Source of the DNA: Clostridia bacterium
GTDB lineage: Bacteria > Bacillota > Clostridia > HGM11514
Assembly: GCA_045586685.1 (NCBI GenBank)
Contig: JAZNAU010000039.1
Span: forward strand, 10,024 to 74,023
Length of the DNA: 64,000 nucleotides
Direction: 5' to 3'
The notes beneath the pieces were generated by a model. That model saw only the letters and a list, made by a program, of their open reading frames with translations, did no database searches and was not told the DNA's origin. Shown here one piece after another: positions 16,270 to 20,600 of this stretch (its first letter is position 1; each line of letters starts with the position of its first letter). The position numbers and the translations under genes were made by a program.

Positions 16270-16346
<77 letters not shown>

Positions 16347-16421: not shown

Positions 16422-17063
16422 TTATAGAATCCCTTTCCAAACCAATGCACTTAACACGCAGGTGGCTAATAACAGAATGGAAACCAGAAAAATTCCAATT
16501 TTATTATTCTTTGGTGCAGCGGCGGGTTCCAATAACTTTGTTTTCCGCAAAGCAGAAACAATGGGACGGTACAGAAGTAAAGTAATGGACATATTGAGTC
16601 CCCCTTTTAATAAGTTAAAGGGAAGAAAGACGGGCAATAACATTTTCGCAACGGATTCTCTGGGCATAATCAAATAAATGGGGGTAATCAGATAATTCCA
16701 TAACAGCATAATTCCTGTCATTGCAATAACACCAACGGTCAATCCCATGACTGCACCGGACAGGGTGTGTTTCCGTTTATAAATGGCAGCAGCCGTACAG
16801 GCAAAGGCACAGCTTGAAATCAGATTCATAATTCCGCCAATTAGTCCTGTGTCACTCACAGTAATCATTTCAACAAAAGCAACAACCAATGAAACCAAAA
16901 AGGAAACCAACGGGCCAAACAAAAACCCGCCCATGGTAATCAGAACATCCTTTGGTTCATATTTTAAAAATGAAACAATGGGAATCCGACATACCAGCAT
17001 TGCCACATACGACATGGCACAAAGCATTGCCACCGTTGTTAATTTTTTTGTTTTTGAATTCAT
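16422..17063 (-). CDS. ribU: ECF transporter S component, riboflavin (RibU-like)
   Basis: Hydrophobic S-component (FLKYEPKD, PFNLLKG) located under an FMN riboswitch. Confidence 0.85.
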   Translation of the reverse strand: MNSKTKKLTTVAMLCAMSYVAMLVCRIPIVSFLKYEPKDVLITMGGFLFGPLVSFLVSLVVAFVEMITVSDTGLIGGIMNLISSCAFACTAAAIYKRKHTLSGAVMGLTVGVIAMTGIMLLWNYLITPIYLIMPRESVAKMLLPVFLPFNLLKGGLNMSITLLLYRPIVSALRKTKLLEPAAAPKNNKIGIFLVSILLLATCVLSALVWKGIL

Positions 17064-17122: not shown

Positions 17123-17142
17123 CAGTAAGGCAAAGTGTTGCC

Positions 17143-17252
17143 ATCTTCTTTCATCCAGACTATACTGTCGGTTTTGGAATTACACCAAATCATGCATACA
17201 TGCTTGCGGACTATACCGCCGATCGGGAATTTCACCCTGCCCTGAAGACATT
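17143..17252 (-). ncRNA. FMN riboswitch (RFN element)
   Basis: Minus strand TCTTCAGGGCAGGGTGAAATTCCCGATCGGCGGTATAGTCCGC...GGTGTAATTCC...CCGACAGTATAGTCTGGATGAAAGAAGA; preceded by TTGACA(17300-17295)-17bp-TATAAT. Confidence 0.96.
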
Positions 17253-17431
17253 GTATTCAACTGTTAGTATCATTATACCAAAATAGTTATCCCTTGTCAA
17301 GGTTTGTAAAATTGTAATGAAATTGCAATTATCTTGTAATAACGACGTAATATGACAGGCTTCTTTCCCCTTCTTATGTTACAGACATATTACGACAATG
17401 GAAAAAAATGTAAAAAACTTTTAAAAAACAC

Positions 17432-17460: not shown

Positions 17461-17493
17461 ATGGAATATAATAACAGGAAAAGGAGTATTATT

Positions 17494-18261
17494 ATGGAGA
17501 AACTTAAGATTTTTATGGCGGATGACAGTGTGGAATTTTGTGAAAATGTAAGTGATATGGTCAATCAGCAAGCTAGTATGGAAATGGTTGGTGTTGCTTA
17601 CAACGGGGAAGAAGCGTATGACAAAATTTGTTGTTTAAATCCTGATGTGGTATTGTTGGACAACTGTATGCCTTATATGGACGGGCTGGATGTTGTAAAA
17701 AAGATTCAGGATAACAAGGATTTGCTTCCAAAGGTTCCCGTTTTCATTATGCTCACCGCCATGAGTCGGGAAAAAACAATGCAGACAGCCATGCGATTGG
17801 GAGTGGACTATTATTTGGTAAAGCCTATCGATTTAAACATTTTAATGGAACGGATTCAGCAATTTTCCGGAACAGACCGATTGTTTATGCCTACGGCTTC
17901 CTTGCCGGTAACAGAAGATCTGGAAACCAGAGTCACAAAAATCATGCACGAGGTTGCCATTCCGGCACACATCAAGGGATACCAATATTTAAGAGAAGCC
18001 ATACTGTTGGTGATAGACGATGTAGATTTACTAAATGCCATTACCAAACAGCTATATCCCATGGTTGCAAAGAAATTTGCTACTACCCATTCCAGAGTGG
18101 AGCGTGCCATTCGTCATGCAATTGAGGTGGCATGGGACAGAGGGGACCCTGATGTTCTTTCCTCTTATTTTGGCTATACCATTCATACCAATCGCGGGAA
18201 GCCTACCAATTCCGAATTTATTGCCATGATTTCGGATAAAATTCGCTTGGCAATGAAGTAG
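17494..18261 (+). CDS. spo0A: Sporulation master regulator Spo0A
   Basis: Receiver domain plus Spo0A_C ([38 protein letters not shown]); start at 17494 after AAGGAG. Confidence 0.96.
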
Positions 18262-19890: not shown

Positions 19891-20124
19891 TTATAAGGAT
19901 ATCTTGTTAATCTTTTTAATGCAATCACGGCATATCATTTTTTCCTCAAGAGAAATTAAATCATCCTCAGTTTCGCAGAAGATGCAAGTGGGATATGCTT
20001 TTTTAATCATTAGAGTATTCATTTGTAAACTGACATCCAATTCATCTCCGGCTTGTATATTCATTTTCCGCCTGTATTTGACAGGTATGACAAAACGCCC
20101 TAAGGAATCAAGTTCATTTTTCAT
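19891..20124 (-). CDS. AbrB/MazE/SpoVT family DNA-binding protein with C-terminal CxxC...CxxC
   Basis: MKNELDSLGRFVIPVKYRRKMNIQAGDELDV...PTCIFC...ICRDC; start at 20124 after GGAGG. Confidence 0.88.
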   Translation of the reverse strand: MKNELDSLGRFVIPVKYRRKMNIQAGDELDVSLQMNTLMIKKAYPTCIFCETEDDLISLEEKMICRDCIKKINKISL

Positions 20125-20141
20125 AATTTTTTTCCTCCAAA

Positions 20142-20307
20142 TAAAAAATGTGTGGCAATCAACGAAAGCCACACATGAAAAATGTACGTCTCTCGTTATT
20201 GTCACACAACTCAAATATTTCACCATTACACGCAATGAAATAAAACGTACATTTTTACCAAAAGAAAAAATTACGCATAATGGATTTCTATATCGAATTG
20301 TGTGACA
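20142..20307 (-). ncRNA. Putative structured RNA / leader, copy 1 (~165 nt)
   Basis: TTTACA-17bp-TATAAT promoter (20341-20313); outer stem 20295-20307/20200-20212; inner stem 20270-20283/20223-20236 with G-U pairs; terminator 20176-20139. Confidence 0.6.
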
Positions 20308-20341
20308 TAATGATTATATCACAAAAAATTTGATTTGTAAA

Positions 20342-20512
20342 TAAAAAATGTGTGGCAATCAACGAAAGCCACACATAAAAAACGCATAGCTCTCAATTAT
20401 TGTCACATAATTTAATACACTATTATCACAAAGCGTATCCAAAAAAGAGCTTGCATTTTTATCAAAAAAATGCCGCTTTGCGATAACATTTTTATAATTA
20501 AATTATGTGACA
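20342..20512 (-). ncRNA. Putative structured RNA / leader, copy 2 (~170 nt)
   Basis: TTTACA-17bp-TATAAT promoter (20546-20518); 16-bp outer stem 20497-20512/20401-20416; inner stem 20474-20486/20423-20435; terminator 20376-20339. Confidence 0.6.
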
Positions 20513-20600
20513 TTTTGATTATATCACAAAAATTTTTATTTGTAAATACAAAAATAATAAAAATGGAAAAATTTACATGGCACTTGTTTATACTCCGTTG

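Follow-up and report, generated by a model that had tools for sequence, protein, structure and literature searches.

What do the two similar units at 20139-20548 on the minus strand of the window encode, and how are they related to the small AbrB-like gene that follows them? The window is the whole stretch of 64,000 nucleotides analysed here, and it belongs to a Clostridia genome of 1.55 Mb in 56 contigs (97% complete). The original prediction proposed a new system of paralogous, structured RNAs linked to the AbrB-like regulator. According to the present analysis, the units probably belong to a leader RNA of about 150-220 nt that is found in many copies across the class and would act as a three-helix transcription attenuator.

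Tandem units and the AbrB-like gene

The two units are arranged head-to-tail with a period of 205 bp, and the mean column identity between them is 83%. Each unit opens with TTTACA, a 17-nt spacer and TG-n-TATAAT, at 20546-20518 in unit 1 and at 20341-20313 in unit 2 (all features of the units are on the minus strand). Both promoters match at 11 of 12 positions, and they are the top two of the seven promoter-like sites between 19700 and 20800. The two units of about 200 bp with extended -10 promoters, as originally described, are thus present. In both of them the first paired base is located 6 nt past the end of the -10 box, a spacing that makes it plausible for transcription to begin at the hairpin base.

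The long hairpin of unit 1 covers 20401-20512, in which the outer helix P1 is formed by 20497-20512 with 20401-20416 and the inner helix P2 by 20474-20487 with 20422-20435. In the case of unit 2, the hairpin covers 20200-20307, with P1 formed by 20295-20307 and 20200-20212, and P2 by 20270-20283 and 20223-20236. The outer and inner stems quoted in the original prediction were recovered in the folds of both units. The fold energy is -61.0 kcal/mol for unit 1 (z = -8.5) and -56.5 kcal/mol for unit 2 (z = -6.5), and none of the 200 shuffles of either unit was as stable as the native fold. The stems contain no mismatch. The minimum-energy folds include six G-U pairs in unit 1 and seven in unit 2, and the complementary strand is less stable than the minus-strand RNA by 13.6 and 18.1 kcal/mol, respectively. 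These values agree with the earlier remark that the non-Watson-Crick positions in the stems are G-U on the minus strand.

The intrinsic terminator of unit 1 is located at 20343-20376. Its stem (20368-20376 with 20348-20356) encloses an 11-nt loop and has an energy of -14.9 kcal/mol, and its U-tract extends to 20343. The terminator of unit 2 (20143-20176) has the same sequence in the stem, the loop and the U-tract, as had been claimed. Both terminators were missed by the terminator scan because the loop has 11 nt and the scan permits loops of at most 8 nt.

The GGAGG ribosome-binding site (20134-20138) and the AbrB-like gene (ORF 20124-19891) follow on the same strand and together occupy 19891-20138. 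The end of unit 2 is only 4 nt from the GGAGG and 18 nt from the ATG. As there is no space for another promoter between the unit 2 terminator and the gene, expression of the AbrB-like gene depends on read-through of unit 2. The encoded protein has 77 residues and a C-terminal CxxC...CxxC. The single sequence scores just below the curated cut-offs (21.5 against 24.7 bits for Pfam, 27 against 28.3 bits for TIGR01439). The subfamily profile matches the structures of AbrB, Abh and the SpoVT N-domain with E = 2.7e-8 to 8e-6, and by this profile the protein belongs to the AbrB/SpoVT family, which has an N-terminal looped-hinge-helix, swapped-hairpin DNA-binding domain.

Two more leader copies in this genome are located directly upstream of AbrB paralogues of the same subtype. 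Across five genomes of the genus, the leader is present at all 14 same-subtype paralogues with 330 nt of upstream sequence (three more at contig edges were left out). At nine canonical or other abrB-like genes from the same family of genomes, no match to R1, the covariance model of the leader, was found. The subtype itself is rare: a large protein search gave 15 clusters, and in the scan of one genome per species its relatives were found in metagenome-assembled genomes of the same genus only. No relative of the subtype was found in viral contigs, and none in metagenome contigs, where the three loci obtained are all at 35-42% identity. The expected co-occurrence of the RNA with AbrB-like genes holds within the genus (14/14 against 0/9) and fails across the family of RNAs, where AbrB-like proteins account for five of 78 downstream ORFs. 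An RNA system tied to the AbrB-like regulator is therefore not borne out, as seven copies are present in this genome, 41 of 151 genomes of the class are positive, and many unrelated genes are located downstream.

The motif GTAAA / T run / CC is found at 20565-20576 on the minus strand, some 20 nt before the -35 box of unit 1. It recurs upstream of nine of the 14 paralogue leader promoters in the genus (the window site and loci L049, L059, L050, L042, L051, L062, L066 and L010). Among 106 copies of the RNA family examined with their flanks, it is present at two, both of them AbrB-linked copies of this genome. From its distribution, the motif may be a candidate operator specific to the AbrB-paralogue loci of the genus, for example for autoregulation.

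Several observations concern the surroundings of these genes. The spo0A gene (receiver domain and Spo0A_C) is located at 17461-18261 on the plus strand of the window, at a distance of about 1.6 kb to the AbrB-like gene; the Spo0A of Bacillus is a repressor of abrB. At locus L059 (genome G001, contig C65), one paralogue of the subtype has AGG in place of the ATG start, which may reflect a sequencing error, an alternative start or the decay of the gene to a pseudogene. Contigs C39 and C43 of this genome start inside or next to AbrB-subtype paralogues. The repeated cassettes of leader and gene seem to break the assembly, and thus the copy number in this genome may exceed seven.

Spread of the family and covariation of the helices

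Two covariance models were used. R1 covers the 3' half of the RNA, from the apical loop to the terminator, and R2 covers the antiterminator. The window units score 101.8 and 94 bits with R1. This model detected seven copies in the genome of the window, 83 copies in 10 of the 12 genomes of its family, and copies in 41 of the 151 genomes sampled from the class, with up to 17 per genome. When only class genomes at least 90% complete are counted, 37 of 135 are positive. The proposed search for structural homologues in other Clostridia genomes thus found them class-wide. No R1 match was detected in the 147 genomes of other classes included in a 151-genome sample of the phylum, and the only two positives of that sample both belong to Clostridia. 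One phage record matches only the part of a copy that comprises strand b and the terminator. The extended -10 box is present upstream of 92 of the 106 copies with flanks.

The units match no Rfam 15 family, as had been suspected. At the gathering threshold, Rfam 15 gave only FMN and tRNA in the whole window. When matches to the window units with E up to 10 were included, the best one scored 21.7 bits against cut-offs of at least 40 bits. Nine loci carrying other copies were also searched with Rfam 15, and no match was located at any copy. In the literature searched, including RNA-discovery papers, we found no description of the family; the supplementary motif tables of these papers may hold one. 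The FMN riboswitch of the window (17139-17253, minus strand, 110 bits) precedes a 213-residue membrane protein (16422-17063, minus strand), probably a riboflavin transporter, and the tRNA gene is located at 16273-16346 on the minus strand. A drum RNA (RF02958, 76 bits) is found at L130:391-508 on the plus strand, about 270 nt upstream of a three-unit array in another genus.

The closing helix P1 covaries among the copies. When 15 copies were aligned with plain MAFFT, 10 of its 12 pairs were changed on both sides and 97.8% of the cells were paired, against at most 56% in registers that were slid as controls. RNAalifold predicted P1 (13 pairs) and the terminator (9 pairs) from 49 copies, and 20 of the 22 pairs show compensatory changes. 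In 87 of the 90 copies folded, P1 is the closing helix of the minimum-energy structure. P2 is predicted from single-sequence folds, in about half of which an extra hairpin is found at the P1/P2 junction. All 90 copies fold better on the sense strand than on its complement, with a median difference of 18 kcal/mol. Sequence conservation is unusually high at the terminator loop and at the base of the terminator stem. According to the folds, the covariation and the strand asymmetry, the proposal of paralogous structured RNAs of attenuator form on the minus strand is well founded.

These results bear on the question of whether the repeats act as DNA, either as a MITE-like mobile inverted repeat or as a palindromic protein-binding site, with the RNA fold as a by-product. 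The multicopy nature of the family, the long inverted repeats and the assembly contigs C39 and C43 that break at copies would suit such an element. On the other hand, the copies within this genome are at most 74% identical to each other apart from the tandem pair, and they differ by compensatory changes; the G-U pairs are on the transcribed strand, on which the fold is more stable in every copy; no flanking duplications or terminal repeats were seen; and the pseudoknot and antiterminator pairings would be meaningless in double-stranded DNA. A DNA-level origin of the pattern is very improbable.

Competing pairings of strand b and the terminator 5' arm

The original prediction contained two stems, the outer and the inner one. 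To these stems our model adds a pseudoknot and an antiterminator, which are the two pairings that would make the RNA a switch. The apical loop of the long hairpin contains a conserved stretch, A5-UGCA..., here named strand a (20447-20460 in unit 1, 20242-20256 in unit 2). Strand a is complementary to strand b, which is located just 5' of the terminator; the linker and strand b together cover 20377-20400 in unit 1 and 20178-20199 in unit 2. In an alignment fitted to the structure, the pseudoknot a:b has 15 pairs with 91% of the cells paired and eight pairs changed on both sides, and none of 500 shuffles was as good. The a:b duplex has a median energy of -15.8 kcal/mol among the copies, and the pairing is found in both window units (-15.6 kcal/mol in unit 1 and -15.2 kcal/mol in unit 2). 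Part of strand a is sequestered by weak local hairpins with a median of -4.25 kcal/mol. The pseudoknot is a predicted structure, and it would require the long hairpin to fold back on itself.

The second partner of strand b is the terminator itself. When the 3' arm of the terminator was left out, the 5' arm paired with b in 87 of 90 copies. The resulting antiterminator hairpin has a median energy of -14.4 kcal/mol, compared with -14.9 kcal/mol for the terminator and -7.05 kcal/mol after the right arm was shuffled; in 83 of 90 copies the shuffle falls short of it by 3 kcal/mol or more. In unit 1, the linker and b pair with 20364-20376 in a 13-bp hairpin of -16.0 kcal/mol. In unit 2, they pair with the terminator 5' arm and loop (about 20160-20176) in a 16-bp hairpin of -13.1 kcal/mol, which takes in part of the unusually long terminator loop.

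In an alignment again fitted to the structure, 80.3% of the cells in the antiterminator columns are paired against 76.3% in shuffles, which is a moderate difference, and 68 double changes were counted against 33.9 in shuffles. For the 4-bp core between b and the terminator 5' arm, considered by itself, sequence conservation suffices as an explanation (78.2% against 76.6%), and nearly the same pairing is reached when the register is shifted by two columns. Only the longer hairpin including the linker and the terminator loop stands out above the controls.

An alignment-free test was also performed, in which each arm was paired with its own partner and with the partners of the other copies (90 copies). 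For P1, the energy was -19.35 kcal/mol with the own partner and -7.8 kcal/mol with the others, and the own partner was in the top 10% in 85 of 90 copies. The terminator gave the same count of 85 (-12.25 against -7.3 kcal/mol). The corresponding values are -16.05 against -11.6 kcal/mol with 55 of 90 copies for the pseudoknot, and -17.35 against -12.3 kcal/mol with 59 of 90 copies for the antiterminator. The family is compact, with four well-delimited helices.

Strand b can pair either with strand a or with the terminator 5' arm, and the 5' arm can pair either with b or with the terminator 3' arm. These mutually exclusive pairings have the logic of an attenuator with an anti-antiterminator. They also bear on the reading of each unit as a constitutive cassette that spreads together with accessory genes and consists of a promoter, a hairpin stabilising the 5' end and a leaky terminator, by which expression is fixed at a low level. 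The hairpin begins at about +1, as it does in known 5' stabilisers, the downstream genes are unrelated accessory and surface proteins, and the protein-domain searches of this genome found no sensor. In a fixed attenuator, however, two conserved, covarying pairings that compete for b would be needless, and the conserved base and loop of the terminator stem fit a dual pairing constraint. We consider a cassette without any switching rather improbable. The conserved competing helices and the strand asymmetry make both the fixed cassette and the DNA-level element less likely.

Downstream genes and the proposed control

Most copies of the RNA are closely followed by a gene. Among the 106 copies with flanks, the distance from the match end to the next ORF start is at most 40 nt in 51 and 41-160 nt in 27 more. 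Another complete unit comes next in four copies according to the script and in about five further copies by eye, three copies are located at contig ends, and about 15 to 21 have no close downstream ORF. Tandem arrays in which each unit has its own promoter recur in other genomes; L130, for example, contains three units, and L131, L102 and L106 contain two units each.

The 78 downstream ORFs were analysed with Pfam. BspA-type LRR proteins (9/78) and proteins with a Cu-amine-oxidase N-terminal domain (8/78) are the most frequent, followed by AbrB/MazE (5/78, two of them from other bacterial families), SLH (4/78), NPCBM (4/78) and zinc ribbons (2/78). Many of the remaining ORFs have no Pfam match. 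Two other copies in this genome (L127:1187-1474 on contig C25 and L128:1221-1472 on contig C47) are followed by genes of small acidic proteins (84 and 96 residues), which are paralogous to each other and for which no Pfam family scored above the cut-off, and similar small proteins are located behind copies in other genomes (L125, L160 and L164). In the case of eight gene-less copies (L152, L153, L154, L185, L197, L202, L203 and L126), a stretch resembling the P1 5' arm and then a second terminator are located 30-110 nt past the first terminator, and thus a read-through RNA could refold completely. In L152 this stretch shows complementarity to the linker and to the beginning of strand b as well.

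The units may also be regarded as free-standing sRNA genes, which act as trans regulators or as sponges for protein or RNA. The RNA of about 170 nt would then be the product, and read-through would be incidental leakage. This reading is consistent with the strong promoter and the terminator that each unit possesses, with the recurrence of arrays of complete units, and with the base-paired ends of the terminated RNA, which would favour stability. Two features fit it better than they fit an attenuator: the upstream gate of a tandem pair can be bypassed as each unit has its own promoter, and the gene-less copies, like window unit 1, have no ORF directly behind them. Against this, the same-strand ORFs within 160 nt behind 78 of 106 copies (51 of them within 40 nt) leave no space for another promoter, and the antiterminator pairing is kept, which would have no use if every transcript were terminated. 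As the variable parts covary inside the individual copies, little shared single-stranded seed is left, and Hfq was found in only 13 of the 41 RNA-positive genomes. We judge it unlikely that sRNA production is the main role of the units. In view of the self-promoted units and the gene-less copies, the terminated RNAs may have a function of their own in addition.

For the attenuator, which we prefer, the following course is proposed. A strong sigma-A-type promoter would start the transcript at the foot of the P1-P2 hairpin. The leader would then present, in order, the hairpin with strand a in its apical loop, the linker, strand b, the terminator with its arms c and d, and the ribosome-binding site. 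If the pseudoknot a:b is formed, b would be locked, the terminator would form, a stable RNA of about 165-170 nt would be released and the gene would be off. If strand a is unavailable, the linker and b would pair with c and the terminator loop, and the antiterminator thus formed would permit read-through into the gene. Of the window transcripts, those started at the first promoter would face two gates and those started at the second promoter only one. We infer the transcription start, the termination, the read-through and the direction of control.

The choice between a:b and the antiterminator could depend on a small ligand or a protein, or on when the polymerase pauses. According to the calculated energies, the combination of pseudoknot and terminator would be favoured. 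Kinetically, the local antiterminator hairpin should form before the long-range a:b pairing. Since the energetics and the kinetics favour opposite folds, the choice is probably set by timing or by a factor that captures or releases strand a. Between b and the terminator there is a U-run, which presumably resembles the T-rich NusG-dependent pause sites. This genome encodes a single NusG, and no LoaP-like NusG paralogue was found in it.

Other candidates for the input were searched for in the same genome. CsrA and RNA-binding domains of the CAT/LicT type were not found in this 97% complete assembly. The ANTAR search gave no match, and the control search also matched in no genome. One GGDEF protein is encoded; c-di-GMP as the input is neither supported nor excluded. 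Hfq is encoded here and in 77 of the 151 class genomes above the cut-off, and it was dropped as an obligate partner because of its low frequency among the RNA-positive genomes. A leader peptide is unlikely, as the AUG of the apical loop is not kept: its U position is C in 24 of 105 copies and its G position is A in 10 of 105. A short frame starting in the terminator 5' arm is, by eye, not conserved either.

As a tentative extension, the family may be a new class of sensor RNA, either a riboswitch or the target of an RNA-binding factor. Across the class, its pseudoknot would gate a regulon of accessory surface proteins, small proteins and AbrB-like regulators, and the abundant terminated RNAs of tandem and gene-less units would serve as decoys that buffer the signal. 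If so, one global signal would remodel the cell surface. Under the attenuator model, an unannotated RNA switch would be present in about one quarter of the Clostridia genomes sampled, with 1-17 copies in each, and would control surface proteins (BspA-type LRR, Cu-amine-oxidase-N and SLH) and small regulators. Such genes shape how the bacteria meet their surroundings, and knowledge of the input would expose a global signal that is at present invisible in annotation. The model would also explain how the expanded set of AbrB-like genes in the genus is controlled, as these genes have no promoters of their own.

The family was compared with known RNA systems. ToxI-like RNAs of type III toxin-antitoxin systems are short tandem repeats transcribed from one promoter and followed by the gene of an endoribonuclease toxin. 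The present units were rejected as such a system, as they have a period of 205 bp, each has its own promoter and terminator, and the downstream protein is AbrB-like. T-box leaders are similar in forming a multicopy leader family of Firmicutes, in which a trans-acting molecule can tip the balance between terminator and antiterminator. They differ in that they are not known to form tandem arrays of self-promoted units. An assignment as a T-box was rejected as no T-box model matched and the downstream genes encode surface and small proteins, not synthetases or proteins of amino-acid metabolism.

The ZTP/pfl, preQ1, SAM-II and fluoride riboswitches close a pseudoknot, and c-di-GMP riboswitches control clostridial surface proteins. 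The present family resembles the former in its distant pseudoknot, the 3' strand of which adjoins the expression platform, and the latter in its regulon of surface and accessory proteins. Unlike these riboswitches, it has no Rfam match, its helices are long and nearly perfect, and it contains few conserved unpaired nucleotides. LhrC1-4 of Listeria are tandem multicopy sRNAs with their own promoters and terminators, which act in trans through conserved single-stranded motifs. The likeness consists in paralogous RNAs arranged head-to-tail, each with its own promoter and terminator; in the present family, in contrast, an antiterminator is present and a gene follows directly in most copies.

The L20 leader is a single-copy element, which is bound by ribosomal protein L20 and controls ribosomal genes. 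Here, in contrast, up to 17 copies per genome precede unrelated genes, and the distant strand is located in an apical loop, from which the pseudoknot is formed. The two are alike in that a leader of about 200 nt attenuates transcription by competing structures; such complex competing structures are described for infC-rpmI-rplT of Bacillus subtilis (PMC1865079). The SLH motif is reported as an orphan riboswitch candidate found in Clostridia upstream of S-layer-homology proteins and unknown proteins, with 80 examples, originating from a Synergistota genome and preceding SLH genes in about 60% of cases (Stav et al., 2019; PMC6429828). In the present family, SLH proteins account for only four of the 78 downstream ORFs, and judged by gene context the two RNAs may be distinct. 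The leader represents a new family that probably uses a known principle, transcription attenuation. It is unusual in its high copy number, in the tandem arrangement of units with their own promoters, and in the unrelated accessory genes that would make up its regulon.
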